Part shown: positions 2,180 through 61,619 of the stretch, piece after piece
How the letters are laid out: every line of letters starts with the position of its first letter
How positions within the stretch are numbered: position 1 is the first letter of the stretch
Assembly (NCBI GenBank): GCA_016932495.1
Contig: JAFGCR010000002.1
Span: forward strand, 8,519 to 72,518
Source: Candidatus Peregrinibacteria bacterium
GTDB taxonomy: Bacteria > Patescibacteriota > Gracilibacteria > UM-FILTER-43-11
Direction: 5' to 3'
DNA: 64,000 bases
Notes under the pieces: generated by a model
Told to the model about the DNA's origin: nothing
The model's database searches: none
The model's input: only the letters and a program-made list of their open reading frames with translations
Translations under genes and position numbers: made by a program

Positions 2180-2246
2180 ACTCAGCGACCGGGGATCAGT
2201 GACCAGCCCTGACCACTAACTACTTAAATTCTTTAATTCATCTACG

Positions 2247-5200
2247 ATGAAAAAAACAATCCCCATTTTATTATTTACCGGCTTCCTCCTCATCTTTCCG
2301 AAAATGGCTTTCGCGGGCCTCAGTGAAGGCTGTTTCCCGGCCGTGGTCTGCGGAACGGGCCAGAACTATTACGCGGATGACTGCAAGCCCCATATCGAAA
2401 CCCTTACCGGCGCCACCCAGAGCTGCCAGTCCAATTACGACGATCCTCCTGCCGGCAAGCAGTGGGCTTTTAACTGCGATAACGGCTGTTACGGGCGTTC
2501 GGATGACGTCGCGGCCGAATGCCCCGGCGGGATTATGATCGCCGGCGACTGTAAAACACTGGCCCGTGTGGTGATTGACGGACTGGATAACAATATATTA
2601 AAAACGTACGCTCTTAACACCCTCACTAAACTGGTTTACGCGGATTGCGGCGACGGCGAATCCCCCATATGGGACAATACCGCCCATGAATGGGTCTGTG
2701 TTATTCCTGCCGCCATGGACCCCTTGGCCCCTTGTGCTGACGGCGAAGTCCTTTCGTGGGATGCCGGCAATAGTGAATGGGTATGCGGACCGCCTAATTT
2801 TACGTATTGGTCTGCCAATCCTGCCGATCCTACTGAAATCTATTACAATGCGGATAATGTCGGTATCGGAACCACTGATCCGGCCGCGAAGCTGGATGTT
2901 AATGGTTCTATGAGGGCAGGATATGGACTGGACAGGACTTCTTATTTTGGACACGCGGCAATTGGATATGCAACTTATAATGGTTATGCCACTTTTGCGC
3001 ATAAGGATCACAATACAGATGCTGATGCCGCATTAGTCCAGACGCCTGGTGGTGAAACTTATCTTAATACCTCTTCTGGTGACCAAATATCATTTACCAT
3101 AGGCGGCACTACAGGTACTTTAGCTATGAGAATCAATAGTAGTGGCAATGTGGGAATGGGCACAACTGATCCCGACTATAAACTTCATGTTGAAAATTCA
3201 ACTATCTACGATTCTGTGGATCCTGACCGTTTTTATGCCGTCGCTGATTCCAGGGAATATTATGGCTTATATGCTGAAGCCAAAGGGGCATCGGGCAATC
3301 TTGGCGCTCCTCCACTTTATTATAATTTTGGTATAAAAGGGATTGCGAATGAATCTAATTCCCATGGGAATTTTGGTGTCTGGGGGGAAGCTGCCAATGG
3401 CGCAATGTTCGGAGCAGGTGTTTATGGAAAGGGTGTAGCTGATTATATGTATGGTGTTATAGGTGAAAGTGAAATGGCCACTGGTGTATATGGCGAAGGT
3501 GCGGACAAGGGAGTCCGTGGTGTTGGTGATAATTACGGTGTTTATGGTCACAGTACTTCAGGTAAAGGGGTCTATGGCGGTAGTTCTTCCGGTTATGGGG
3601 GATATTTTTCCGGTGATGTGTATGTGTCAGATAACCTGGAGGTCAGCGATGATCTTATGCTGAGCGAATATGCCAGACATAGTAACGACGATGATACCTA
3701 TCTCCAGTTTGACACCAACACATTAAACTTTGTCGGAGGGGGGAAGGAATTATTCCGGGCGCGTGGCACCGCGCAGGCCTATGCTTATTTAGGAAATAGT
3801 TCCGATGATATAGATATCGCTTTAAATGATGATTTGTTCGTACGCGGTAGTGATGGCAATGTGGGAATCGGGACACTAGCGCCTGATAATAAATTGCATG
3901 TAGAAGGGGGTTATATCGAAAATTCAGCCAGTGCACCGCGGTTGATTTTTGAGGAAACAGATCAATCTGATAATTTATGGATTATGGGTCAGGACGCTAC
4001 AGAATTTTGGATTGCTCATGACAGCACTGCTAATGAAAATCGTGTTATTCAAATTGAAGAAACCGGTGAAGTGGGCATTGGCACGGCGGATCCTAGTGCC
4101 AAGCTTGATATCGCTGTTACAGGTGATGGTACGGAAGTGCTGAGGTTCAGCACCGAAAGGCCATGGACTTTCCGCCAGCGTGGCACGGGTTCAAGTGCCA
4201 TTCTTGACTTATGGTCCACTGTTGACGGCAAAAACTTTACAATCACATCTGCCGCAAATGATAACCAGGCCGCGCTTTTCGCTCCGCGCAACACCGCTGC
4301 CGACAGCCGGGTTTATCTGGTTCAGGATGGTGGCCGGGTTGGCATTGGAACATCAAGCCCTGGTAGTGTGTTAGAAGTATCAGGTGATACCATTTTGGAT
4401 CATTATGTTCAATTAAGGGATTATGACGATGATACGCTTACCACTCATTTAATCGCCCGTGATGATAACTGGATGTTTTTTAGCGGAGGGGTGGCAATTG
4501 GCACATGGTCCAATGGTGGGCTTGGGGCTGTCGGTACGGGCGATTTAGTAGTCGAAGGAGGCGCCAGTATTGGCACTACAACAGAGACTCATTCACTTGT
4601 GGTCGCGTCAGCCGATGAAGAAACCGTACGCCTAATGGGGCCAGACAGCTATGGCCATGGTGCCCGTTTGAATTTTGGCGATGTGGATTATGTTTATTTC
4701 GATGAATATGAAGATGATAAGTTAAAGATATATGGTGAGGATGGTATATATATTGATACTCATTTCACCAGTGATTACCTGACCATTGATACTAATGTGG
4801 ATGCCTTGTATGATATTTATGTAGGCGATGAGTTGACAGTTGATAATGATTTGTGGGTGGATGATGACATATATCTTTATGACAAAATTTATCATAAGGG
4901 AGATGAAGATACGTATATTGATTTTAATACCGACAATATTGATTTTTATGCAGAGGGTGTGAATACCCTTGATCTAAGAGATGACATTGTTTATTGGCAG
5001 GCAGGAGGCAAAATGACAGCCTGCCCGGATGGCTATACATTAGTAGATTGGGATGGTGTAAATTACAATCCCGGTTTTTGCATAAAGGATTATGGTGATA
5101 TTTTTATTGGCTCCTGGCCTTTTGCAAATGCCGCCTGTATGGCGGAAGGGGCTCATATGTGTGATTACACTGAGCTGTGGCTGGCTTATGAGCATGGTTC

Positions 5201-5378
5201 GCCATGTATTGATATTAATGGTTACTGGATCAATGAATATGTGGATGATGATGATGTTTTATGTGGTAATAAAACCATTTCGTCCTGTTCAGATAGTGAT
5301 ATACCTAATTTTGAAGGAAACTGTGCTGCCCATAGTGGCAGCAGGTCATGGACGTGCTGCATAAGCGCCAACCGGTAG
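2247..5378 (+). CDS. Large secreted surface protein with tail-fibre-like repeats (xVGIGTxxPxxKLxV) and a Cys-rich C-terminal lectin-like domain
   Basis: Signal peptide MKKTIPILLFTGFLLIFPKMAFA. At least five copies of the NVGIGTTDPxxKL(D/H)V motif. Gly/Tyr-rich beta-type region. Asp-rich repeats near the C-terminus. Final domain: AHMCDYTELW...YWINEY...CC. Confidence 0.7.
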   Translation: MKKTIPILLFTGFLLIFPKMAFAGLSEGCFPAVVCGTGQNYYADDCKPHIETLTGATQSCQSNYDDPPAGKQWAFNCDNGCYGRSDDVAAECPGGIMIAGDCKTLARVVIDGLDNNILKTYALNTLTKLVYADCGDGESPIWDNTAHEWVCVIPAAMDPLAPCADGEVLSWDAGNSEWVCGPPNFTYWSANPADPTEIYYNADNVGIGTTDPAAKLDVNGSMRAGYGLDRTSYFGHAAIGYATYNGYATFAHKDHNTDADAALVQTPGGETYLNTSSGDQISFTIGGTTGTLAMRINSSGNVGMGTTDPDYKLHVENSTIYDSVDPDRFYAVADSREYYGLYAEAKGASGNLGAPPLYYNFGIKGIANESNSHGNFGVWGEAANGAMFGAGVYGKGVADYMYGVIGESEMATGVYGEGADKGVRGVGDNYGVYGHSTSGKGVYGGSSSGYGGYFSGDVYVSDNLEVSDDLMLSEYARHSNDDDTYLQFDTNTLNFVGGGKELFRARGTAQAYAYLGNSSDDIDIALNDDLFVRGSDGNVGIGTLAPDNKLHVEGGYIENSASAPRLIFEETDQSDNLWIMGQDATEFWIAHDSTANENRVIQIEETGEVGIGTADPSAKLDIAVTGDGTEVLRFSTERPWTFRQRGTGSSAILDLWSTVDGKNFTITSAANDNQAALFAPRNTAADSRVYLVQDGGRVGIGTSSPGSVLEVSGDTILDHYVQLRDYDDDTLTTHLIARDDNWMFFSGGVAIGTWSNGGLGAVGTGDLVVEGGASIGTTTETHSLVVASADEETVRLMGPDSYGHGARLNFGDVDYVYFDEYEDDKLKIYGEDGIYIDTHFTSDYLTIDTNVDALYDIYVGDELTVDNDLWVDDDIYLYDKIYHKGDEDTYIDFNTDNIDFYAEGVNTLDLRDDIVYWQAGGKMTACPDGYTLVDWDGVNYNPGFCIKDYGDIFIGSWPFANAACMAEGAHMCDYTELWLAYEHGSPCIDINGYWINEYVDDDDVLCGNKTISSCSDSDIPNFEGNCAAHSGSRSWTCCISANR

Positions 5379-5415
5379 TTTTAAATTTAAAATTATTATT
5401 ATTAAATATTTTTTT

Positions 5416-6210
5416 ATGTCCACTCATTTTAAATACACTTTACTTGTTTTCTTTATCGCCTTCCTTACGTTTGTGGCCGGTTACTACGTTGGTCAGGCAG
5501 GGTTGGTAAAAACCACACCGTCTTCCAGTCAGCCGACGGTTAGCCAGCCCACGGTGAACGTGCCGGCTAAAAAAGGCTCCTATGAACAGGGTTACCAGGA
5601 AGCTCTGGATTTCGCCAGACAGAAACTTGCGGAAGAGGGCGCATTTGAACCGCCAAGAAATCTTACAGCTGTCGTTAAAACCGCAAGCGGGCAGAATGTG
5701 GTAGTTGAGTTTAATGCCAGCTTACTGGATCCGTTCGCGGAAGGTATGGCAACTAAAACTATTGTAGTAAGTGGTGAAACTAAGCTTTTCGAAAGAGTTG
5801 AAAAAGATGAGGAACAATATAAAAAAGAATATGCGGAATACGAAAAGGCTATGCAGGCTTATGAAACCGCTCTTGCAGGCGCAAAAACAGAGGAGGGGTT
5901 GGAGGAGCCAAGAGAACCGCAGGAATATGAAGAAAAAGTTTTAGCGGTTAGCGATTTACTGCCTGGTGACCGGGTACGTGTAATCGCCAAGGTGATTGAA
6001 ATGGAAGCGACAGAAGATGGCAAAGAAGCTCCAATGGTATCACCATTTGCCAGCGACAAGGTCGAGGCTGCGGAAGTCCGTTTGTATTCACGCCCTGAGC
6101 CGGAACCGGAAAAAGAATTGCCTACGCCGATGGAAGAAGAAATGAAAGAAGCATCTGAGGAATTACTGGGAGAGCCAGTGGCTGAAGAGGTGGAGGAGGT
6201 GACTCCTTAA
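5416..6210 (+). CDS. Membrane-anchored acidic (Glu/Lys-rich) hypothetical protein
   Basis: 264-aa ORF with an N-terminal TM helix (YTLLVFFIAFLTFVAGYYV) and an E/K/P-rich tail. I recognise no family. Confidence 0.5.
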   Translation: MSTHFKYTLLVFFIAFLTFVAGYYVGQAGLVKTTPSSSQPTVSQPTVNVPAKKGSYEQGYQEALDFARQKLAEEGAFEPPRNLTAVVKTASGQNVVVEFNASLLDPFAEGMATKTIVVSGETKLFERVEKDEEQYKKEYAEYEKAMQAYETALAGAKTEEGLEEPREPQEYEEKVLAVSDLLPGDRVRVIAKVIEMEATEDGKEAPMVSPFASDKVEAAEVRLYSRPEPEPEKELPTPMEEEMKEASEELLGEPVAEEVEEVTP

Positions 6211-6242
6211 ATTTGTAAATTTTTAATTTTCAGTTTTCATTT

Positions 6243-6335
6243 ATGCGCACGTATACACCCCCCTCATTCACTCTTACGTAAGAGGGGAGGTATATAGAAG
6301 GGTAAGAAAGAAAACTAAAAGTAAAAGAAAGAAAT
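6243..6335 (+). repeat. Composite intergenic element, copy A (ATGCGCAC box, GC hairpin, polypurine AAGAAAGAAA tract)
   Basis: atgcgcacgtatacacccccctcattcactcttacgtaagaggggagg...gggtaagaaagaaaactaaaagtaaaagaaagaaa. Homologous to the copies at 11634, 24083, 44501, 57551 and 63031. Confidence 0.7.
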
Positions 6336-6350
6336 TTTCATTTGATTTTT

Positions 6351-6641
6351 ATGAAGAAAAAATATCTGTGGCAAATCATATTATTTATTTTGACCATTTT
6401 CTTTATTGCTTATTGGTCTTATGGCCAATTTAAACAATGGAAGAGTGATTTGATTTTAAGTACTTTCCAGAAAGGATATTTTAATGCTATTAATGACCTA
6501 GTTAAAGAAGCAAAAGCCAAAGAGAATTGTATGCCGATTTTTCTTGGGCCGGGAGAAGGCGGCGTTCAGCTTATAAATACTGTCTGCCTCAAAAATGCAG
6601 GTATTGAAATTGAGCTCAATGAATTACCTAAGCATGATTAA
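6351..6641 (+). CDS. Small membrane-anchored protein, paralogue of 6687..6944
   Basis: N-terminal TM helix. Shares ...C(x)...GEGGVQLINTVCL with the neighbouring gene. The ATG at 6351 is preferred over the TTG at 6342. Confidence 0.5.
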   Translation: MKKKYLWQIILFILTIFFIAYWSYGQFKQWKSDLILSTFQKGYFNAINDLVKEAKAKENCMPIFLGPGEGGVQLINTVCLKNAGIEIELNELPKHD

Positions 6642-6686
6642 TTATTCAATCAATCGTAAACCTTTAATCGTTAATCTTAATTCACC

Positions 6687-6944
6687 ATGAAATCCAAATA
6701 TTCTGTCGGTAAGATCATTTTAGTCGTCTGGGTTGCCTTTTCCATATTATATGTAGGTTATACCCAATACCGTTATTTCCAAACATTCATCGCTAATCAG
6801 GCTTACCAAACCGGCTTGAAAGACGCGGTGGTGAAAGTCATCCAGCAGGCGCAGGAATGCAAAGCGTTCCCGGTTACCATTGGCGAACAGGGCGTTCAGC
6901 TGATCAATATTGCCTGTTTACAGCAGCCGGAAGGGGAGGAATAA
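6687..6944 (+). CDS. Small membrane-anchored protein, paralogue of 6351..6641
   Basis: N-terminal TM helix (IILVVWVAFSILYVGY). Shared motif ECKAFPVTIGEQGVQLINIACL. Confidence 0.5.
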   Translation: MKSKYSVGKIILVVWVAFSILYVGYTQYRYFQTFIANQAYQTGLKDAVVKVIQQAQECKAFPVTIGEQGVQLINIACLQQPEGEE

Positions 6945-7319
6945 ATTTTAATTTCAAGGCAAGGAGAACGGCGGCTCCTCCTAGATTAGGAGGAGAGGAA
7001 GAGGCGGTAGACTAAAAAAAGTAATTTTGTTTAACCAAAATACCTATTTGATCTACCCCTCTTTCCTTCTCCCCTGAACCAGGGGAGACCGCCTTCCTCC
7101 TATCCTCTTTGATTTACTACTTCAATTAGTGGAATGCTCTTTTGAGGAGCAATGCTGTGCTGGTTCAATAGGGAAACGCTCAAATCTTTAAAAATCTTCT
7201 CATTCCTTCCCATTCCCTGCCTGCGGATTTTCAAAGATTTGTCCTCACGACGCTGCAAACTTCCTTCGGTCGTTTTTGCTTTGTTCGGACCGCGTTTCTC
7301 GCTATTTACTAAAAAAACT

Positions 7320-7348
7320 TTGACATTCATTTTGTGTACTGCTAAAAT
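7320..7348 (+). promoter_or_regulatory. Sigma70-type promoter upstream of tuf
   Basis: TTGACA (7320-7325), 17-nt spacer, TAAAAT (7343-7348). It lies 36 nt upstream of the tuf ATG. Confidence 0.7.
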
Positions 7349-7384
7349 CCCTCGTGCTATTTTAATTTTTAAATTTAAAATATT

Positions 7385-8578
7385 ATGGCTGAAGGAACCT
7401 TTGACCGTAGTAAGCCTCATGTAAATGTGGGTACAATTGGTCATGTTGACCATGGTAAAACTACATTAACAGCTGCTATTACCGCTGTTGCCGCTGCTAA
7501 GATGGGTGGTATTAACAAAGCGGTTGCTTTTGATCAGATCGATAACGCTCCTGAAGAAAAGGAACGTGGTATCACTATCGCGACTTCCCATCAGGAATAC
7601 GAAACCGCAAAGCGCCACTACGCTCATGTGGATTGTCCTGGTCATGCGGACTATGTTAAGAATATGATTACCGGCGCTGCTCAGATGGATGGCGCGATTT
7701 TGGTGGTCAGCGCGGCGGATGGCCCTATGCCACAGACCCGCGAACACATCCTGCTGGCCCGTCAGGTGGATGTGCCTTATGTTGTCGTCTTCCTGAATAA
7801 AATCGACATGGTGGATGATCCGGAACTGATCGATTTGGTCGAGATGGAAGTCCGCGAGCTCCTGAATAAATATGAATTCCCAGGCGATGATACTCCTATC
7901 ATCAAAGGCTCTGCCCTGAAAGCGCTGGAAAATCCAACCGGGCCCGATGCCGAACCGATTGTGGAACTTCTGAATAAATTAGATGAATATATTCCTGAGC
8001 CGAAACGTGATTTAGACAAACCTTTCCTCATGCCTGTTGAAGATGTTTTCTCCATTAAAGGCCGCGGCACGGTCGCAACCGGCCGTGTGGAACAGGGGGT
8101 TGTTAAAATAAACGAAGAAGTGGAAATCGTCGGCATTAAACCTACCCGCAAAGTGGTGGTGACCGGTGTGGAAATGTTCCGCAAGATCCTGGATCAGGGC
8201 CAGGCGGGTGATAATGTCGGCCTGCTTCTCCGCGGTGTAGAACGCGACGAGATCGAACGCGGTCAGGTGTGCGCCAAACCCGGCAGCATCACGCCTCACA
8301 CAGAATTCGAATGCAAGGTGTATGTGCTGACCAAAGAAGAAGGCGGCCGCCACACTCCTTTCTTTAAAGGCTACAAGCCTCAGTTTTACATCCGCACCAC
8401 GGATGTGACGGGCGCGGTTACCCTGCCGGAAGGGGCTGAGATGGTGATGCCTGGCGACAATGTGAACCTGAAGGTAGAATTGGGCGCTCCGATCGCCCTG
8501 AATGATGGTACCCGTTTTGCTATCCGCGAAGGCGGACGCACGGTCGGCGCCGGTGTGATCACCAAAATTATCAAATAG
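7385..8578 (+). CDS. tuf: Elongation factor Tu
   Basis: 397 aa with [14 protein letters not shown] and NKID GTPase motifs. Full-length EF-Tu-like sequence. Confidence 0.98.
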
Positions 8579-9243: not shown

Positions 9244-10218
9244 ATGAAAAAATTCACCAAAAGACAGGCGCAGGAACGGGTGTGGCAGTTTATTTATGGA
9301 TTCCGGGATGCCGTTACTAAGGATTTGGCGGAGAAAATCGATTTTATCATCATTTACGGTTCGGCAGTGCGGAAAGAATTCGTGCCGGGAAAGAGCGATG
9401 TGGATATTGTCATTCAGGTTTTCAGGGAAGCGGATAAAAAAATGGTCGAGGAAAAAGCAACGGAACGGTTCTGGCATGTGGCTAAACGTTATCCGGAGCT
9501 TCAGTTTGAAAAATCCCTCTCTGTTTCTCAATCCAAAAAGCGCACTCCTTTCACCAAAATGCTGGAAAAACTGGAACAGTCTTCATTCCTTTATGTGCCG
9601 GTATTTGTTTTTGCCGAAGGCGAGATCGACTGGAAAACCGGCACGCTGCATTCCGATAACCCGCTGATCAAACTCGGCCAAAGCCTGCTGATCCCCCAGC
9701 GGTCTGTTTTCCTCCGTTTTAAACAGGAGGGGGAGGTATTGTATGGCCGGGATATCCGGAAGGTCATCTGCATCAGGCTCACGATCATGGATCGTCTGCG
9801 TCTGGGCGCGGCCCCCCAGCTACTCAGCCTGATCAGTTTCTTTGTTTCATTCATCGCTCCCAAAAAAGCCCGCGGTTACGCGGTGAAGGCTCTGCTGTAT
9901 CAGATCGATTCGCTGTTAACGGCTTTATCCGATTATGAAAAGATGGAGCGGCATGAAAAAATTGAAAAAAATGAACGGATTTTATTAAAAGAATTTACGG
10001 AACGCCTTGAAAAACTGGTCAGACTTCGCCTGGATTACCGTAAGGGCGCTTTACGCCCATCGGATTTCCGTTTATTCCGTCAGGCCATCCGCATCAAATG
10101 GAACGAGCTTAAACTGTCCCGCCTCCAAACCATATGGTTTTGCCTGAAGGCCAATTGGTTTATTGTGCGTTCCAATGCCCGGGCGATTGCCTATTTATTT
10201 TTGAGGCGGATAAAATAA
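9244..10218 (+). CDS. Pol-beta-superfamily nucleotidyltransferase domain protein with a helical C-terminal region
   Basis: IIIYGSAVRKEFVPGKSDVDIVIQV fits the GS...DxD minimal NTase motif. I do not recognise the rest of the protein. Confidence 0.55.
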   Translation: MKKFTKRQAQERVWQFIYGFRDAVTKDLAEKIDFIIIYGSAVRKEFVPGKSDVDIVIQVFREADKKMVEEKATERFWHVAKRYPELQFEKSLSVSQSKKRTPFTKMLEKLEQSSFLYVPVFVFAEGEIDWKTGTLHSDNPLIKLGQSLLIPQRSVFLRFKQEGEVLYGRDIRKVICIRLTIMDRLRLGAAPQLLSLISFFVSFIAPKKARGYAVKALLYQIDSLLTALSDYEKMERHEKIEKNERILLKEFTERLEKLVRLRLDYRKGALRPSDFRLFRQAIRIKWNELKLSRLQTIWFCLKANWFIVRSNARAIAYLFLRRIK

Positions 10219-10221
10219 AGG

Positions 10222-10881
10222 TTATTGTCTTTCTCCCATATCCATTTCCCATAGGATTTTTTGATTTTTATATACGACCACACAAAGCAGCACGAAAGCC
10301 GCGCCTAAAAGATGGGGCAGGAATTGGGCTAAAAATACTTTTCCGAATAATATGATCATCGTGTTGACTGCAATAAAACCGATTCTGGCTTCCGTAGGCC
10401 CAAAGCCCAGGTAGCTGATCTGGAATTGGTTGGTGGCGGCAAAGCTGATAAACGAATTCACCATAAAAGCGCCGTAAACCATCATCAGAAAGAAGAGAAT
10501 CCCAAATCGGTCGGGCATAAAAAAGGAATAGCCGATCAGCAGGCACGACATAAAAATATAATCCAGGAAATGGTCAGCATAATATCCCCACTTGATCAGT
10601 CCTGTATTCCGCATACGGCCCACTGCTCCGTCAAACAAATCCGTTAAATACTGCATTAATATCATGGCTGATGTGCCCCAGAGCCAATGGATATTATACC
10701 GGGCCAGATAGCCGAAGATCAGCGCTCCGACCGCCCATAAGCCTGTCATATAAGTCAGCGTCCATGTCTCAATGCGTTTCGGGATTTTCGGCGTTCCCCA
10801 TATCACCAATTTTTGCTCCAGGTCATGCAGAATGGATCGGCCGACTTTTTTGTGGCCGGCGAATTCCTTTTTTTTAGTCAT
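10222..10881 (-). CDS. CDP-alcohol phosphatidyltransferase family membrane protein
   Basis: DGAVGRMRNTGLIKWGYYADHFLD fits D-G-x2-A/G-R-x7-8-G-x3-D-x3-D. Several TM helices. I chose the ATG at 10881 (MTKKKEF), which overlaps the upstream HAD gene stop by 8 nt (ATGACTAA). Confidence 0.7.
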   Translation of the reverse strand: MTKKKEFAGHKKVGRSILHDLEQKLVIWGTPKIPKRIETWTLTYMTGLWAVGALIFGYLARYNIHWLWGTSAMILMQYLTDLFDGAVGRMRNTGLIKWGYYADHFLDYIFMSCLLIGYSFFMPDRFGILFFLMMVYGAFMVNSFISFAATNQFQISYLGFGPTEARIGFIAVNTMIILFGKVFLAQFLPHLLGAAFVLLCVVVYKNQKILWEMDMGERQ

Positions 10882-37349: not shown

Positions 37350-39131
37350 CTATTCAATAGCAGGCGTTTCTACCGGTGCTGTGTCAGGGATTTCACCCAG
37401 TCGGATTTCCGGCACTTCACTTTTTGGTTTGATGCGCTGGACGACCGTGATAGATTTCGGGTCGGGAAGAATCTGGATGCCCGTTTGGTCTTTAAGGCCT
37501 TTTAAATCTATGCGGTAGGATTCCAGCGTCTGATCGGTTACACCCTCCACTTCGAGCTGGATCACGTTTGGCTGGATTAGCTCTGTGTAAATCACATTCA
37601 CCTCATCTGTGTTCTCATTATTTTTATTCAAATCGGCAATAGAAAAATTTTGGGGGTTATTGGCCGTGGCCGGATCCATGGGTTCGTTCCAGATAATGTT
37701 GATACGAGTGAGGTCTTCAAACTCCTGTTCGATTGGATAAGGCGGAGTGGTATCAGGCAGGATTTTTACGGCTAGATCTTTATCGTTTTCCAGTTTCCCC
37801 ATAAAAAGCGCCCGATTTTCACGGGTATCAAAATCATCGCTTTCCATTAATTTTCCCTCGGCGGTCTCCACAGTGAGTTTGTAAAAGGCTTCACTGCCGG
37901 ATTGTTTGATGAGTCGCAGCTGATATTGGTCATGCAGAAAGGTGTTGCGCGGCAAAGTATAAGTGTAGCTTAAACTTGTCTTGCTCCCCGCCGGCAGGAT
38001 GATCTTCGTTCCTATCATTTTAAATTCTCCCTCACCCTGTTCCTGGCTGTCTAAGGGCAGCTGAAGCACGTCCGCCCCCTTGGGAATATAAAGCCTTAAG
38101 TATCCTTTGTAATTATCGCTGTACGTATTGGTGAATCCAGGGTAGCGGATGGTCACCTCGGTCGTGATCTCCGGCAGTTCTTTCGTGATATTGGCGTAAT
38201 AATGGACTTCGGTCTGCACGTAACGGTCCGCCTTTTTACTGCCCAGATTCGCCAGGTTTACCGTCAGGAAGTCGCTTCGTTCCAATGGCGCCATGGCATT
38301 GGCCCAGCTTTTTTCAATTAATTTGTTTTCCAGCCGTTCGTTTTTAAGCCACAGATAGATATTTTTATTGTTCAGCCCGTCCACGAACAGGTCACGGGTT
38401 TTAAACGGATGGCGTTTGGCTTTACCGATTAATTGGATGGCCAGTTCCCCCAGAATATCTTTTCGGTTTTCCAGCGCATCTACATCGTGCCGGTCAATAT
38501 TGTTCACTTCGAATTCCAGTTCGCTGAACAGATTATTTTTGGTCAGCTGTTTTCCATTCAGGCTGATTCCGCCGAATTCATCGATCATCTTTTCAATCAG
38601 GCTGAAATTTACCACAATCAGCCCATCCACATCCTTATCGGGGAATTTTTCCTGGTAAAACTTGATCAGTTCTTCGGCTGCGCCCGGGAAGTCCGGATCC
38701 CAGTTGGCGTCGCGGAAGGTATATCCTTGGTACCATTCATTTTTCAGCAGTTCTTCGTGCGGATAGGGGGGCGTGACATAGCTTTTGGTGTCGATGTCGT
38801 ATGAATTTTTAAAGGTCACATCGCCCGGGAAACCCATGAATGTACTTATTTCTCCGTACCCCGTGATAAACCCGCCCCCTGGCCGTAATTCATAATCATT
38901 CTGCAGAATGACCACATAATCTTTGCTGAAAAAGGTAAGGCCTAAGAAATGGTTGGCGAAAAAACGCAGTTCCCCCAGCATCAGGTAAAAGATAAAGAAG
39001 GTCAGAACGATGATGCCCACAATGATCCCGGCCCACTTTTTAACGCCTTTGGGCAGTTTGATCTTTAAAGAGCGTCCGCCCTTTTTCTTCTCCTGTTTTT
39101 GCTGACTGTAAGGTGAATAGGCGTATTCCAT
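37350..39131 (-). CDS. DUF4012-like membrane-anchored protein with a C-terminal Ig-like region
   Basis: N-terminal TM helix. VVILQNDYELRPGGGFITGYGEI matches the NNAELRxTGGFIGSYG hallmark as I remember it. Confidence 0.7.
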   Translation of the reverse strand: MEYAYSPYSQQKQEKKKGGRSLKIKLPKGVKKWAGIIVGIIVLTFFIFYLMLGELRFFANHFLGLTFFSKDYVVILQNDYELRPGGGFITGYGEISTFMGFPGDVTFKNSYDIDTKSYVTPPYPHEELLKNEWYQGYTFRDANWDPDFPGAAEELIKFYQEKFPDKDVDGLIVVNFSLIEKMIDEFGGISLNGKQLTKNNLFSELEFEVNNIDRHDVDALENRKDILGELAIQLIGKAKRHPFKTRDLFVDGLNNKNIYLWLKNERLENKLIEKSWANAMAPLERSDFLTVNLANLGSKKADRYVQTEVHYYANITKELPEITTEVTIRYPGFTNTYSDNYKGYLRLYIPKGADVLQLPLDSQEQGEGEFKMIGTKIILPAGSKTSLSYTYTLPRNTFLHDQYQLRLIKQSGSEAFYKLTVETAEGKLMESDDFDTRENRALFMGKLENDKDLAVKILPDTTPPYPIEQEFEDLTRINIIWNEPMDPATANNPQNFSIADLNKNNENTDEVNVIYTELIQPNVIQLEVEGVTDQTLESYRIDLKGLKDQTGIQILPDPKSITVVQRIKPKSEVPEIRLGEIPDTAPVETPAIE

Positions 39132-39197: not shown

Positions 39198-39225
39198 TTG
39201 ACAATTATTTTTTTATTAATAAAAT
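39198..39225 (+). promoter_or_regulatory. Sigma70-type promoter driving the tRNA-like gene cluster
   Basis: TTGACA (39198-39203), 16-nt spacer, TAAAAT (39220-39225). Confidence 0.7.
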
Positions 39226-39314: not shown

Positions 39315-39455
39315 GGGGTGGTAGCTCAGTCGGGAGAGCAGTTTACAGCGATTAAGGATCTGACAACAGAATCCTGATCAACATCAGAGGCCTCGGTTTT
39401 GTTTTCAGGTCTCGCTGTAAGCAGGTCGGGGGTTCAATACCCTCCCACTCCACCA
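39315..39455 (+). tRNA. tRNA-Ala-type gene (G3:U70, encoded CCA) carrying a 65-nt rod-like insertion in the anticodon arm
   Basis: Acceptor GGGGTGG/CCACTCC with G3-T70. D arm GCTC-AGTCGGGA-GAGC. T arm GGGGG-TTCAATA-CCCTC. Anticodon stem GTTTA/TAAGC encloses 72 nt instead of 7. See findings. Confidence 0.6.
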
Positions 39456-39524
39456 TTCAACAAAGCCCCTTGGGCGGAATGCCTAGGGGTTGCAGAAAGG
39501 CCGGACGTCAAGTCCGTTCTCATA

Positions 39525-39611
39525 GCCGGGTTCGTCTAGCATCCAGGACGCCGATGAACGGGTAAAATCGTTCAGTCGGAAACGTGGGTGAAGATCCCAC
39601 ACCCGGCACCA
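39525..39611 (+). tRNA. tRNA-Glu-like gene with a doubled (10-bp) anticodon stem, an 8-nt loop and non-canonical D and T loops
   Basis: Acceptor GCCGGGT/ACCCGGC plus ACCA. D arm GTC-TAGCATCCAG-GAC. T arm GTGGG-TGAAGAT-CCCAC. Anticodon arm CCGATGAACG-GGTAAAAT-CGTTC(A)GTCGG. Confidence 0.55.
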
Positions 39612-39613
39612 AT

Positions 39614-39686
39614 TGCCTGGTAGCTCAATTGGCAGAGCGGGGGATTCGCAATCTCCAGGTCGCTGGTTCAAGTCCAGCCCAGGCCA
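39614..39686 (+). tRNA. Cloverleaf tRNA with anticodon CGC but no G3:U70 pair
   Basis: D arm GCTC-AATTGGCA-GAGC. Anticodon arm GGGGA-TTCGCAA-TCTCC. T arm GCTGG-TTCAAGT-CCAGC. Acceptor TGCCTGG/CCAGGCC has a U1-C72 mismatch and C3:G70. CCA is not encoded. Confidence 0.65.
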
Positions 39687-39732
39687 CACACGATCGGGTT
39701 AGCTAATTGCGGCAAAACCCGTCACGATACAA

Positions 39733-39770
39733 GGCGGCTCGTTACCTATCGAGCCGCCCTTTCTCTATTT
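39733..39770 (+). terminator. Rho-independent terminator after the tRNA-like cluster
   Basis: ggcggctcg-ttacctat-cgagccgcc followed by ctttctctattt. Confidence 0.7.
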
Positions 39771-39825: not shown

Positions 39826-40599
39826 ATGAAAAAATGCATTTGTAATCCATTATTTGATTTAACCGGTAAGGTTGCCATTGTCACGGGTGCCAGCCGGGGT
39901 CTTGGGCTTGCTATGGCCCTTGGGCTTGCTCAGCAGGGAGCGAATATAGTGATTACCGATGTTCTTTCTACCGCAAAAGTAATCAAGAAGGTGGAAGCGT
40001 TGGGTGTTAAGGCATTAGGCCTGAAAGTCGATGTGACCAATCCAAAGCACATTGATGCTATGGTCAAAAAAGTCGTGGGCAAATTTAAGAAAATCGATAT
40101 TCTTATCAATAATGCCGGTGTTTATTACCCCACGCCTATTAAAGATCTGGAAGAAAAGGAATGGGATAAGCTGATCGCCATTAACTTAAAAGGCACCCTG
40201 ATGTGCGCGCGAACTGTTGGCAAACAAATGATTAAGCAGAAGAAAGGAAGTATTGTTAACATAGCCAGTGTGGCTGGCCTGATGGCCTTTGCACAGTCAG
40301 CCGCTTATAACGTTAGTAAGGCGGGAATCATTATGCTCACCAAAACGCTGGCAGCGGAATGGGCGCCGCACGGAATCCGCGTGAACGCGATCTGTCCGGG
40401 CGTTTTTGTTACCGATATGACCAAAGGACTGCTGAAAGATAAAGGTTTCCAGAACATGATCAAAGCCAGCGTCCCCCTGCAGCGTTCCGGCACACCGGAT
40501 GAATTGGCGGGTGCCGCGGTTTATTTGGCCTCTGATGCCGCCAGTTATACCACTGGCCACGCGCTGGTGGTGGATGGCGGATGGACAACACATTTATAG
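39826..40599 (+). CDS. Short-chain dehydrogenase/reductase (FabG / gluconate-5-dehydrogenase-like)
   Basis: VAIVTGASRGLG (TGxxxGxG), NNAG, and the S...YxxxK catalytic set (YNVSKAG). The start is uncertain (39799 or 39826). The listed 39769 lies inside the terminator. Confidence 0.88.
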   Translation: MKKCICNPLFDLTGKVAIVTGASRGLGLAMALGLAQQGANIVITDVLSTAKVIKKVEALGVKALGLKVDVTNPKHIDAMVKKVVGKFKKIDILINNAGVYYPTPIKDLEEKEWDKLIAINLKGTLMCARTVGKQMIKQKKGSIVNIASVAGLMAFAQSAAYNVSKAGIIMLTKTLAAEWAPHGIRVNAICPGVFVTDMTKGLLKDKGFQNMIKASVPLQRSGTPDELAGAAVYLASDAASYTTGHALVVDGGWTTHL

Positions 40600-40623
40600 T
40601 TTACCTTTTAATCGATATTAAAA

Positions 40624-41562
40624 ATGAAGAAAATGACTAATCCAAAAGTCCGTAAAACCCGTATCGCGGTGGTCGGCATCGGTATGGTGGGCTCCTCTTT
40701 CGCGTACGCGGCCATGATCAAGGGGCTGGCGGCAGAGCTCATATTAATTGATGTTAGCGAAGAGCGTGAGGAGGGGGAAGTGATGGATCTGGCTCATGGG
40801 CTGATCGGCACGGAGACCGGTGATGTGCGGGGTGGTCATTTAAGGGATTGTGGCGATGTGGATATTATCGTCATTACCGCGGGGGTGGCCCAGAAACCGG
40901 GTGAAACACGCCTTGATTTAATCAAAAAGAACACCAAAATCATGAAGGGGATCATTAAAGAAATGGGAAAACTCCGTTCCGATACGGTGGTGATCATTGT
41001 CTCTAATCCGGTTGATGTTTTAACCTATATTGCTCAGCAGTATATCAAGCTCCCTAAAGGTCAGATATTCGGTTCCGGCACGTCGCTCGACACATCCCGC
41101 CTGCGTTACATCATCAGTCAGAAACTGGGGGTTAATCTGCACAATGTGCATGGATATGTGATGGGGGAGCACGGGGATAGTGAATTTGTACCCTGGAGCA
41201 TTGCCAATGTATCCGGTCTGCCGATTAAAAAAATGCTGACTGCTAAAGATATGCATGCTATTGAAAAGCAGACGATGCGTGCGGCGTATGAGATCATTCA
41301 GCGGAAACGCGCCACGTATTACGGAATCGGTGTGGTGATCACGGAATTGGTGGAAAATGTCCTTCATGACCGCAAGTTTGTTATTCCAGTCTCTACTGAA
41401 CCGGGAACGGCTTATGGTATTAAAGGGATTTGCTTAGGTGTACCCGCCATTTTAGGCCGGCGCGGTGTGGAGCAGGTGTGGAAGCTGGATCTGACCAAAG
41501 GGGAGATGGAGAAGCTGAAAAAATCTGCCGGGATTTTGAAGAAATATTTGAAATCGATTTAA
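40624..41562 (+). CDS. ldh: L-lactate dehydrogenase
   Basis: IAVVGIGMVGSS Rossmann motif. AGVAQKPGETRLDL has Gln at the LDH/MDH discriminator position. GEHGDSEFVPWS. Confidence 0.9.
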   Translation: MKKMTNPKVRKTRIAVVGIGMVGSSFAYAAMIKGLAAELILIDVSEEREEGEVMDLAHGLIGTETGDVRGGHLRDCGDVDIIVITAGVAQKPGETRLDLIKKNTKIMKGIIKEMGKLRSDTVVIIVSNPVDVLTYIAQQYIKLPKGQIFGSGTSLDTSRLRYIISQKLGVNLHNVHGYVMGEHGDSEFVPWSIANVSGLPIKKMLTAKDMHAIEKQTMRAAYEIIQRKRATYYGIGVVITELVENVLHDRKFVIPVSTEPGTAYGIKGICLGVPAILGRRGVEQVWKLDLTKGEMEKLKKSAGILKKYLKSI

Positions 41563-60152: not shown

Positions 60153-61619
60153 TTACAACTTTTGTAAAGCAAAATCCAGTCGTTTCAGCACTTCTTCTTT
60201 TCCCAGATATACCATCAATGTCGAAAAATTAGGAGAATGCTCCTGCCCGGAAAGGGCCACACGGACCGGCCACAGTACCTGACCGTTTTTCAGCCTCAGC
60301 CCACTGACCAGCTCCATCATCTTTTCTGCCAGTTCCGCTGATTTGCCGCTGTCGCCTTTTTCCCATTCCAATTCACTGACCACTTCTTTCGCTTTTTCCA
60401 AAACTTTTTTCAGCATGTCTTTGGTGATCTGGAATTTGCCGCGCATGATCAGGTCGAGCGGATAATCCGGCAGCTTATTGAATAAAACCGATAATTCATC
60501 GGGAATTTCGGACAGTTTTTTAAACCGGCCTTCAAAGTCGGGATCTTTCAGGATCTTTTTAATCAATTCGGGGTTGTCCGGGATTTTGTTTTTCAGACAG
60601 GGTACCAGTTTTTTGTAAAATACATCGACGTCATCCGCTATTTCTTTTTTTATGTATTCGCCATTGATCCAATCCAGCTTCTTGATATCAAAAACCGCTC
60701 CGCCTTTATGCACACGATCGAGGGAAAACTGTCCAATGAGTTCCTCCATGCTGAAGATCTCCTGTTCGGTTCCCGGGTTCCAGCCCAGCAAGGCTAAAAA
60801 GTTGATGAGCGCTTCCGGCAGATAACCTTCCTTCAGATAATCGTCCACCGATACCTTGTTTTTCCGTTTGCTGAGCTTACTTTTATCCTCATTTAAAATG
60901 AGCGGAAGGTGGGCGAATTCAGGGAGCTCCCATCCGAACGCCTCAAAAATCAGGATCTGTTTGGGGGTGTTACTGATATGGTCTTCTCCGCGGATCACAT
61001 GGGTGATTTCCATATCATGATCGTCCGCCACCACGGTCAGATGATACAGCGGGTCGTCGATAGTCCGCGCAATCACAAAGTCATCCAGTTCTTTGCTGTT
61101 TATTACCGTTTCCCCGCGCACCAGATCGTTCCACTTAATATCCCCGCGGTCTTTCGGCACCCGCAGCCGGATTACTCCTTTTTCGCCATTCGTAATCCGT
61201 TTTTTAGCGTTTCCGGGGCTGATTTCAGAACAACACCCGTCGTAACGCGGAGCCCGTTTTTCCTTTTCACATTTTTGACGCATTTCTTCCAGGCGCTCCT
61301 TGGTACAAAAGCAGTAATAGGCTTTGTCTTCATCCAGTAATTTCTGAAGGTATTTCTGATAAATACCGGTTCGCTCGCTTTGCCGGTATCCTTTTGTGCC
61401 TAAATGCACACCTTCATCGCCCGCCAGCCCCAGCGCCACTAAGCCATTGATAATATCGTCTTCAAATTCTTTGGTACTGCGCTCCTTATCCGTGTCTTCC
61501 ATCCGGAAAACCATCGTGCCGCCGTTGTGTTTAGCGAAAAGGTGATTATACAGAGCGGTTCGTACAGTGCCGATGTGAAGAAGGCCGGTGGGAGAAGGGG
61601 GGATTCGGACGCGGATCAT
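60153..61619 (-). CDS. gltX: Glutamyl-tRNA synthetase
   Basis: RVRIPPSPTGLLHIGT (HIGH) and KLSKRK (KMSKS). Confidence 0.95.
   Translation of the reverse strand: MIRVRIPPSPTGLLHIGTVRTALYNHLFAKHNGGTMVFRMEDTDKERSTKEFEDDIINGLVALGLAGDEGVHLGTKGYRQSERTGIYQKYLQKLLDEDKAYYCFCTKERLEEMRQKCEKEKRAPRYDGCCSEISPGNAKKRITNGEKGVIRLRVPKDRGDIKWNDLVRGETVINSKELDDFVIARTIDDPLYHLTVVADDHDMEITHVIRGEDHISNTPKQILIFEAFGWELPEFAHLPLILNEDKSKLSKRKNKVSVDDYLKEGYLPEALINFLALLGWNPGTEQEIFSMEELIGQFSLDRVHKGGAVFDIKKLDWINGEYIKKEIADDVDVFYKKLVPCLKNKIPDNPELIKKILKDPDFEGRFKKLSEIPDELSVLFNKLPDYPLDLIMRGKFQITKDMLKKVLEKAKEVVSELEWEKGDSGKSAELAEKMMELVSGLRLKNGQVLWPVRVALSGQEHSPNFSTLMVYLGKEEVLKRLDFALQKL

Follow-up and report, generated by a model that had tools for sequence, protein, structure and literature searches.

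Results

An RNA cluster in a Peregrinibacteria chromosome

The stretch of DNA analysed here, termed the window, comprises 64,000 nucleotides (nt) from Candidatus Peregrinibacteria bacterium (assembly GCA_016932495.1, contig JAFGCR010000002.1), and all positions given below are positions in this window. It encodes an ordinary glutamyl-tRNA synthetase (GluRS), EF-Tu (7385–8578), IF3, Pth and a block of ribosomal proteins, and this housekeeping content identifies it as core chromosome and not a mobile element. The gltX gene was found at 60153–61619 on the minus strand, where an earlier note made from the sequence had placed it, and its product has both the catalytic and the anticodon-binding domains. 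Between a DUF4012 gene and SDR/MDH genes lies a cluster of three small RNA genes, namely a tRNA-Ala-like RNA with a long rod (RNA1), a tRNA-Glu-like RNA with an extended anticodon arm (RNA2) and a tRNA with an alanine anticodon (tRNA3). RNA2, the subject of this report, is a real, well-folded derivative of tRNA-Glu that is excluded from decoding. Its features are as follows.

39525–39611, forward strand: RNA2, an 87-nt cloverleaf derived from tRNA-Glu, with ACCA encoded
39538–39545, forward strand: D loop AGCAUCCA, with A and U in place of G18 and G19 (the GG is invariant in the tRNA-Glu alignment A1 described below); the D stem GUCU/GGAC is intact
39551–39579, forward strand: anticodon arm of 29 nt, with about 11 base pairs (bp), one bulge and the cap G(G)UAAAA(U)
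39589–39595, forward strand: T loop UGAAGAU, replacing UUCGAUU; the T stem GUGGG/CCCAC is intact

From 5' to 3', RNA2 reads GCCGGGU UC GUCU AGCAUCCA GGAC G CCGAUGAACGGGUAAAAUCGUUCAGUCGG AAAC GUGGG UGAAGAU CCCAC ACCCGGC A CCA, and the letters read back from the window agree with those quoted earlier, including a D loop without GG and a T loop of UGAAGAU. ViennaRNA folds the RNA into a four-arm cloverleaf with a minimum free energy (MFE) of −40.4 kcal/mol, compared with a mean of −25.5 kcal/mol for dinucleotide shuffles (z = −4.89; 0 of 200 as stable), and there is not a single broken pair in any of its helices. In this fold the anticodon arm consists of a 4-bp helix (CCGA/UCGG), a bulged G, a 7-bp helix (UGAACGG/UCGUUCA) and the 6-nt loop GUAAAA. 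The arm had previously been drawn as two 5-bp helices with a bulged A and an 8-nt loop; the extended, bulged helix is recovered, the register is not, and the two registers are near-equivalent and in practice interchangeable. In either register the arm has the 12 additional nt that had been counted, with 29 nt versus the normal 17.

RNA2 was missed by ARAGORN at default settings and by Rfam at the gathering score (29 bits for RF00005), both of which report a single tRNA in the window, the neighbour at 39614–39686. It was also unlisted by Rfam at E ≤ 10 in a 1-kb search. ARAGORN run at a 70% threshold calls exactly 39525–39611 as a tRNA, with the four-base 'anticodon' ggta.

RNA2 derives from tRNA-Glu

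Species representatives in GTDB (one genome per species) were scanned with the pattern GCCGGGTTCGTCTAGN{5,10}AGGAC, also written GCCGGGTTCGTCTAG(5-10 nt)AGGAC, giving 21 loci. Twenty of these are ordinary tRNA-Glu(UUC/CUC) genes from Parcubacteria, Saccharibacteria, Berkelbacteria, Komeilibacteria, Falkowbacteria, unclassified Patescibacteria and Bacteroidales, and the remaining locus, L038, looks like a chance match. The first 15 nt and the D-arm AGGAC of RNA2 are identical to those of the tRNA-Glu genes, the pattern having demanded exactly these bases. Twelve of the genes were aligned (alignment A1) and used to build a covariance model (R1), with which the window was searched with filters off; this reference set holds no genuine Peregrinibacteria tRNA-Glu that could represent the true ancestor. 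RNA2 was the top match in the window, at 51.8 bits (E 3.8e-12) over model positions 1–72 of 72, a score far beyond chance that bears out the tRNA-Glu resemblance first noticed by eye. It is identical to most of the tRNA-Glu genes at 57–59 of 72–75 positions, with a range of 49–59 across all twelve.

RNA2 shares with the canonical tRNA-Glu of the Candidate Phyla Radiation (CPR) the acceptor stem, U8-C9, the D stem, A14, G15, A21, a 4-nt variable loop, the GGG/CCC core of the T stem, A73 and CCA. The acceptor GCCGGGU/ACCCGGC with A73 and CCA is the same as in a Berkelbacteria tRNA-Glu (L035). The tRNA-Glu-type D helix is likewise present, with U11-A24, U13.G22, A46 and no nucleotide 47, and the GUCU/GGAC stem and AAAC variable loop are identical to those of real tRNA-Glu. 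These features (U11-A24, U13.G22, A46 and the 4-nt variable loop) are the identity set known from E. coli GluRS, which may not be that of a CPR GluRS. RNA2 differs from canonical tRNA-Glu in its D loop (AGCAUCCA versus AGUGGCUA, without G18-G19), in its T loop (UGAAGAU versus UUCGAUU), in the outer two pairs of the T stem and three pairs of the anticodon stem, all of which still pair, and in having a further helix and cap instead of a 7-nt anticodon loop, with no U33. In contrast to canonical tRNA-Glu, it also falls below the threshold of every general tRNA detector.

Among the loci recovered, L040 from an unclassified member of the Patescibacteria carries two copies of tRNA-Glu(CUC) about 600 nt apart (1557–1629 and 960–1032, both on the minus strand), one with the T loop UCCGAUU and the other with a change in the acceptor stem (AUAUUCGGU). 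The pair may represent another case of tRNA-Glu duplication and divergence in the CPR.

Changes in loops and helices

The earlier note had proposed that the altered loops do not reflect random decay. This was examined on those columns of A1 that are invariant and lie outside the search pattern, comprising 9 loop and 10 helix positions. RNA2 is changed at six of the nine loop positions (G18, G19, U20a, C56, G57 and A58) and at two of the ten helix positions, which are each other's partners (A49-U65 replaced by G-C), such that none of the ten is changed in a pair-breaking manner. Loops and helices differ for pair-breaking changes (Fisher, p = 0.003) and less clearly for changes of any kind (p = 0.07). 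Across the 15 D- and T-loop positions there are at least nine substitutions, with no helix pair broken. Neutral decay would spread changes over loops and helices and would break pairs, and RNA2 does not show this pattern at the few positions that can be tested. The confinement of changes to loops thus upholds the proposal, within the limits of small numbers and a reference without a Peregrinibacteria ancestor, and the pattern fits selection on the fold with the loops released or redirected. The altered pairs in the T and anticodon stems may be either ancestral or newly compensated, as A1 lacks a Peregrinibacteria reference. At the elbow, the canonical G19-C56 reads U19-A56, a single pair that is statistically meaningless; it would keep one elbow pair and may be a compensation.

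The same sequence could also be read as a plain pseudogene, that is, a recent duplicate or import of a tRNA-Glu/tRNA pair which has no function and is decaying in a variable spot. The helices would then be intact since the copy is young and since templated mutations, such as hairpin template switches and conversion patches, made large changes in few steps. RNA2 is a singleton that is absent from the closest relatives and lies within a clean 192-nt indel, its partner tRNA3 is also lesioned (a U1xC72 mismatch and an alanine anticodon without G3:U70), and UGAACG/CGUUCA forms a perfect 6-bp inverted repeat in the arm, all of which speak for such an origin, as does the occurrence of pseudogenes in supernumerary tRNA arrays (PMC8421152). 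Yet at least nine loop substitutions have accumulated without a broken pair, and three separate patches would each have had to strike exactly one functional loop. Moreover, CPR genomes are small and compact, and a dead gene under a near-consensus promoter is unexpected in such a genome. We consider the pseudogene a real possibility, although not a probable one.

Loss of decoding

RNA2 lacks the anticodon region of a decoding tRNA-Glu, in which a 5-bp stem carries a 7-nt loop with U33, the anticodon YUC and a purine at position 37, and it also lacks the elbow set G18, G19 and U54-U55-C56...A58, whose columns are invariant in A1. When every contiguous 12-nt deletion in the anticodon arm was enumerated, none left a 5-bp stem and a 7-nt loop with U33, and none placed UUC or CUC at positions 34–36. 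The assertion that no simple excision yields a U33 loop with a Glu anticodon therefore survives an exhaustive search, and RNA2 cannot decode because no single 12-nt excision restores the Glu anticodon loop. The 3' side of the extra helix is CGUUCA, which directly precedes the old stem and pairs with the upstream UGAACG. Judged by position only, CGUUCA may hold the ancestral anticodon U34-U35-C36 together with A37, in which case the anticodon would be locked against a built-in GAA 'codon'.

These results bear on the view that RNA2 is an intron-containing tRNA-Glu whose extra helix is removed by a splicing or repair route, for example by an endonuclease and RtcB, to give a decoder. As in the intron-containing pre-tRNAs of Archaea and eukaryotes and the group I intron-containing ones of Bacteria, additional sequence in the anticodon loop lengthens the anticodon stem, and the anticodon-intron helices of eukaryal and archaeal pre-tRNAs are superficially similar. 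CPR rRNA genes, too, reportedly carry insertions, as Brown et al. are said to have described in 2015. Unlike these pre-tRNAs, RNA2 has no bulge-helix-bulge motif, only a continuous helix with one 1-nt bulge; no contiguous excision restores a loop with U33 and UUC or CUC, and a group I intron would need far more than the 12 nt inserted here. Splicing would, moreover, leave the D and T loops aberrant, and the 'introns' called by ARAGORN in homologues of RNA1 yield inconsistent anticodons (CGC versus UUU). Given also that Rfam gave no intron or ribozyme match, we regard this view as very improbable and reject it.

The predicted transcription unit

To judge from its flanking signals, the cluster would be a single transcription unit in which RNA1, RNA2 and tRNA3 lie between a near-consensus promoter and a terminator. 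Its parts are listed below, where L numbers denote loci from other genomes.

39198–39225, forward strand: promoter-like site TTGACA-16 nt-TAAAAT, with 11 of 12 consensus matches, placed to drive the whole RNA cluster
39315–39455, forward strand: RNA1, with a tRNA-Ala-like body (G3:U70, A73, CCA, canonical D and T loops) and a rod of about 71 nt replacing the anticodon loop
39466–39489, forward strand: hairpin H1 (CCCCUUGGGCG...GGGG), downstream of RNA1 and conserved between the window and L002
39495–39686, forward strand: 192-nt segment comprising a leader, RNA2, an AU spacer and tRNA3, absent from L002; its right edge is A73 of tRNA3
39614–39686, forward strand: tRNA3, a canonical cloverleaf with anticodon CGC (Ala), called by ARAGORN and by Rfam (58 bits, first pair flagged as non-standard)
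39692–39724, forward strand: hairpin H2 (GAUCGG...CCGUCA), found between RNA1 and the terminator with fixed flanks in all four RNA1 loci (window, L002, L054 and L057)
39733–39758 or 39733–39768, forward strand: intrinsic terminator, a 9-bp GC-rich stem followed by a T-rich tail

The promoter-like sequence is conserved unchanged in L002 and has a similar counterpart ahead of RNA1 in L054 and L057. RNA1 itself matches the Rfam tRNA model at 40.3 bits with a 71-nt insertion and folds with an MFE of −61 kcal/mol (z −6.4). Four copies were found, in the window at 39315–39455 (+), in L002 at 3513–3653 (−), in L054 at 2784–2916 (−) and in L057 at 1544–1676 (−). All four have G3:U70, with A73 and canonical D and T loops, and CCA is encoded in three. 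The body is conserved, and the rods (60–71 nt) are of two unrelated sequence types, one in the window and L002, the other in L054 and L057. Of the 47 predicted pairs, 2 have substitutions on both sides and 6 on one side between the window and L002, with no pair lost. This comparison shows a clear structural constraint on RNA1, and the compensatory changes support the predicted fold. Alanyl-tRNA synthetase (AlaRS) needs only the acceptor stem, and RNA1 is probably chargeable by AlaRS but non-decoding, because it has no anticodon.

We considered a transfer-messenger RNA (tmRNA), in normal or permuted form, and rejected this. Rfam tmRNA matches were sub-threshold only (21.8 and 28 bits versus a gathering score of 47) and fell on RNA1 or on its 3' end plus spacer. 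Default ARAGORN found no tmRNA, and its 'tmRNAp' call, made only at an 80% threshold, has the implausible tag VQSETWVKIPHPAPIAW. The rods of the window and L002 contain an apparent frame AIKDL(T/A)TES, which by eye is missing from the sequences of L054 and L057.

The junction in L002 reads GGGGTTGCA followed directly by CACACGATCGG, which defines window positions 39495–39686 as a 192-nt indel ending at the discriminator base of tRNA3, with edges uncertain by about 2 nt because of a repeated CA. The RNA2-tRNA3 segment is thus inserted just upstream of H2. The tRNA3 gene begins 2 nt after the CCA of RNA2. It has C3-G70 in place of the alanine identity pair G3:U70, and its first acceptor position is mismatched (U1xC72); A73 is present and CCA is not encoded. 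A single base separates its anticodon loop AUUCGCAAU from a Thr CGU loop, its anticodon and identity elements disagree, and its acceptor stem resembles those of genes a and c in the arrays of L054 and L057 described below. By these features RNA1, RNA2 and tRNA3 are all three abnormal as decoders. Insertion of a miniature inverted-repeat transposable element or other repeat was rejected, there being no other copy of any part of the cluster in the window.

The segment might in principle be an assembly artefact, in which a chimeric metagenomic join created a false tRNA-like sequence; the contig is of metagenome type, RNA2 was seen once and the neighbouring protein occurs on a single contig. Against this, L002 is collinear with the window on both sides of the segment, two complete cloverleaves with perfect helices lie within it, and comparable odd tRNA genes occupy the same site in independent assemblies, which leaves an artefact hardly credible.

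Elsewhere in the window, three consecutive open reading frames (ORFs) of 548, 1043 and 264 amino acids at 533–6210 (+) have no Pfam match. They are followed at 6211–7384 by a stretch of about 1.2 kb without long ORFs that precedes tuf.

A hot spot in related genomes

The syntenic regions of 13 homologues of the DUF4012 protein (67–89% identical to that of the window) were compared; the protein itself assigns the window to Candidatus Peregrinibacteria. The interval from the DUF4012 gene (37350–39131, reverse strand) to the SDR/MDH genes (39827–41562, forward strand) proved to be a hot spot, being hypervariable in L001–L010 and L054–L058. Depending on the genome, it contains nothing, an SDR gene, a 2-hydroxyacid dehydrogenase gene, ORFs of 78–311 amino acids, RNA1 or tRNA arrays. 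No RNA cluster was found at the site in nine relatives (L001, L003/L004, L005/L006, L007, L008, L010, L055 and L058), where various small ORFs are present; the hot-spot ORFs that were scanned had no match in Pfam (L003, L007 and L008) or PADLOC (L007 and L008). Tracts encoding tRNA-like genes occur at the site in 5 of 14 distinct genomes (the window and 13 relatives), with a content that differs in each. A normal tRNA-Glu at this position in relatives, which the earlier note named as the finding that would turn it towards a decaying pseudogene, was not encountered; relatives hold nothing, the rod RNA alone or other aberrant tRNA genes. In three aligned genomes (window, L001 and L002) the leader of the downstream gene (TTTGCATCC...CACGGTAAACTGATG...GTTGATTTAAC) is conserved.

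L002 (85%) has RNA1 (89% DNA identity), H1, H2 and the terminator, without RNA2 or tRNA3. L054 (77%) and L057 (74%) share the order promoter, four tRNA genes (a–d), terminator, second promoter, RNA1 homologue, H2 and terminator, and the rod of their RNA1 homologue is completely different from that of the window. The arrays lie at about 3388–3085 (−) in L054 and about 2127–1823 (−) in L057, with spacers of 3–5 nt, and all of the genes are above the Rfam tRNA threshold. Their anticodons and loops are as follows.

Gene a: CUA, with C33, in L054; CAU in L057
Gene b: GGU in L054; the 8-nt loop UUCGGUCA in L057
Gene c: the loop GCCCGAA in L054; the 6-nt loop AUUUAA in L057
Gene d: GAA in L054; GAC, with C33, in L057

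C33 recurs several times in these arrays. With its CUA, gene a of L054 resembles an amber suppressor, in a lineage thought to use the standard code. Differences between L054 and L057 were counted on a further alignment (A3).

Anticodon arms: 29 of 66 positions differ (44%)
Remaining tRNA bodies: 41 of 226 differ (18%)
Other non-coding sequence: 83 of 471 differ (18%)
RNA1: 6 of 133 differ (5%)

The excess in anticodon arms over bodies is significant (Fisher, p = 6e-5). L056 (71%) has two odd tRNA-like genes, at 3197–3122 (−) and 3071–2991 (−), both of whose loops contain CAGGG. One has an anticodon loop of 6 or 8 nt, and the other is an 84-nt cloverleaf with an arm of 4 bp, a 1x1 internal loop and 6 bp and a D loop without GG, a design like that of RNA2. 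Repeatedly at this locus, the tRNA body is conserved while its anticodon arm is variable or extended; taken together with the excess divergence of the arms, this suggests that the arm is a conflict interface or a swappable module.

Discussion

We propose, at about even odds (a probability of roughly 0.5), that RNA2 is a copy of a CPR-type tRNA-Glu that has left translation and is maintained as a folded, tRNA-shaped RNA in an accessory, fast-evolving island. Transcription from the RNA1 promoter is predicted to give a precursor consisting of the leader, RNA1, H1, RNA2, tRNA3, H2 and the terminator. RNase P would cut at G1 of RNA2, and its cleavage of tRNA3, 2 nt downstream, together with trimming would produce the encoded CCA end. 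The product would retain the acceptor stem, A73, CCA and the D-helix features of the E. coli GluRS set, and by virtue of the retained acceptor-stem and D-helix features GluRS could still bind it or, less probably, charge it. It would be barred from the decoding centre by the arm of about 11 bp, by the lack of a U33 loop and by a former UUC-A37 that is apparently locked in a helix, and further by the replacement of G18, G19, U55 and C56 at the elbow; RNA2 would act, if at all, outside decoding. The proposal is supported by RNA1, which likewise has no anticodon loop on a body that looks chargeable, and whose conservation includes compensatory changes.

Several considerations weigh against this proposal. 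The UGAACG/CGUUCA repeat could arise in a single templated mutation, so that the intact extra helix need not reflect selection. The loci for the decay test were chosen with a pattern derived from RNA2, and with the pattern columns excluded few positions are left. The strong dependence of E. coli GluRS on the anticodon speaks against an efficient charging of RNA2. None of 14 related loci has RNA2 at the syntenic site, and no homologue emerged when GTDB species representatives were scanned by pattern. In JGI metagenomes, the pattern GTCTAGNNNNCCAGGACN{25,50}TGAAGAT (D arm plus T loop) gave ten matches, all by chance or to normal tRNA-Glu. Eight pattern scans of IMG/VR, covering the RNA2 D arm plus T loop, the T arm plus ACCA, the extension helix, tRNA3, RNA1, the array spacer and a relaxed tRNA-Glu 5' half, found no homologue of RNA2, and at most chance matches or normal tRNA arrays. 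Exact-pattern scans of this kind would miss diverged relatives, and, as no homologue was found, neither RNA2 nor its extra helix has support from covariation or conservation. RNA2 thus appears to be a singleton, private to this genome among everything searched, and nothing describing it was found in the literature on CPR tRNA introns, tRNA-like RNAs of Patescibacteria, extended anticodon stems or pseudogenes with anticodon-loop insertions.

A phage origin was also considered. A BLAST search of 50,697 phage genomes brought up no homologue of RNA2, no more than generic tRNA similarity for tRNA3 and nothing for RNA1; with the IMG/VR scans, this leaves such an origin unsupported among the phages sampled, in which those of the CPR are poorly represented. 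One 69-kb viral contig in IMG/VR (L047) carries a 24-gene tRNA array with, at 10175–10330 (+), a tRNA-Glu whose first 18 nt equal those of CPR-type tRNA-Glu and, 10 nt later, a second, divergent tRNA-Glu.

If RNA2 is indeed maintained outside translation, several roles can be envisaged. It may act as a decoy or competitor towards a tRNA-Glu-binding protein or one that attacks anticodon arms, a role that we put forward tentatively and think doubtful; a ribosome-excluded carrier of Glu, or a mere processing or structural passenger in the operon, seem each a little more doubtful still. The carrier role overlaps with a more specific alternative, in which RNA2 is a non-proteinogenic Glu-tRNA. GluRS would charge it, the long arm and altered elbow would exclude it from the ribosome, and it would be the Glu donor of a tRNA-dependent transferase, with RNA1 serving likewise for Ala. 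The retention in RNA2 of the acceptor stem, A73, CCA and D-helix features and the loss of ribosome-facing elements are in keeping with this. So is RNA1, which retains G3:U70 and A73, and CCA in three of four copies, which is 95% conserved between L054 and L057, and whose presumptive synthetase, AlaRS, requires no more than the acceptor stem. On the other side, the GluRS of the window has a normal anticodon-binding domain and the presumed former anticodon of RNA2 is paired within a helix, no other RNA1 locus has RNA2, and no tRNA-dependent transferase was seen among the window ORFs scanned, a scan that was not exhaustive. Cell-wall tRNA-Gly of staphylococci, in addition, keeps a normal anticodon loop. 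We judge such a donor role to be improbable.

More broadly, RNA1, RNA2 and the odd genes of L054, L056 and L057 may belong to an undescribed class of Peregrinibacterial 'tRNA-scaffold' RNAs, an idea that we offer as speculative and on balance unlikely. A conserved body, processable and perhaps chargeable with Ala or Glu, would carry a hypervariable anticodon-arm module in the form of a 6–8-nt loop, a 5–6-bp extension or a 30-bp rod. The arm would work in molecular conflict, for example by blocking or evading nucleases that attack anticodon arms, or else the body would feed amino acids to a non-ribosomal pathway.

RNA2 illustrates which parts of a tRNA survive the loss of decoding, these being the helices, the acceptor end, CCA and the synthetase-facing D helix, and which are rewritten once decoding is given up, namely the anticodon loop and both elbow loops. 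On its own it is a one-off aberrant tRNA gene, and its interest comes from the setting, a hot spot where related CPR bacteria swap short sets of non-standard tRNAs (with CUA, 6- or 8-nt loops, C33 and extended arms) beside a conserved tRNA-Ala-like RNA. Orthologous anticodon arms there are more than twice as divergent as the surrounding DNA, as would be expected at a conflict interface or where modules are swapped. Should further genomes show the same pattern, this would represent a new kind of accessory RNA system in the CPR and a natural case of a tRNA scaffold that displays other RNA.

Comparison with known systems

Weakened D- and T-loop signatures are known from the cell-wall tRNA-Gly of staphylococci, which has an altered D-loop GG and T-loop signature and a normal anticodon stem-loop, is conserved among strains and serves Fem transferases. 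RNA2 resembles it in its weakened D-loop GG and T-loop signature, and differs in lacking a normal anticodon stem-loop and in not being conserved among related strains. No Fem, MprF or LanB-type domain was present among 30 window ORFs scanned, a set that leaves out the ribosomal-protein block and several small ORFs. The comparison with cell-wall tRNAs drawn in the earlier note is therefore apt for the loops, does not extend to strain conservation or to a Fem-type transferase in the scanned ORFs, and stays an analogy.

The tRNA-like domain of tmRNA also combines a chargeable acceptor/T-arm module with a long helix on the 'anticodon' side. RNA2, in contrast, has C3-G70 where tmRNA has G3:U70. The D stem is complete in RNA1 and RNA2 alike, and neither has a conserved tag frame or pseudoknots; RNA1 is absent from most relatives, whereas tmRNA is near-universal. 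The bacterial Y RNA YrlA is a further non-coding RNA in which a tRNA-shaped domain is joined to a long helix, and the L057 array has a sub-threshold Rfam match to it (37.7 bits versus a gathering score of 69). YrlA has its free ends on the long helix and a closed acceptor side, whereas the acceptor end is open here, with CCA, and no rsr or rtcB gene was seen nearby.

The closest parallel is with horizontally spread supernumerary tRNA arrays, which include the L-arrays of Anabaena and others, those of Acidithiobacillus and phage clusters, and for which links to translational stress or tRNA-targeting nucleases have been suggested (PMC8421152, PMC4758250, PMC10264068). As in such arrays, some of whose members are known to be dead (PMC8421152, PMC4758250), extra genes are tightly spaced (2–5 nt apart, with 2 nt between RNA2 and tRNA3) under one promoter and one terminator, are patchy among close relatives and include aberrant or dead members. 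The Peregrinibacteria arrays differ in size (2–5 genes versus 20–43) and in their link with a rod RNA that is tRNA-Ala-like and conserved. They occupy a hot spot of the chromosome next to housekeeping genes, at which no integrase or other mobility genes were seen. Phage tRNAs have been proposed to escape anticodon nucleases by loop mutations (PMC10264068); the orthologues described here go beyond point changes in the loop, with different anticodons, loops of 6, 7 or 8 nt and arms of unequal length. Accessory tRNA arrays as such are known, and we did not find this variation among members in anticodon, loop and arm length described in the literature. Of the systems compared, an accessory tRNA array accommodates RNA2 best, as an unusual member.

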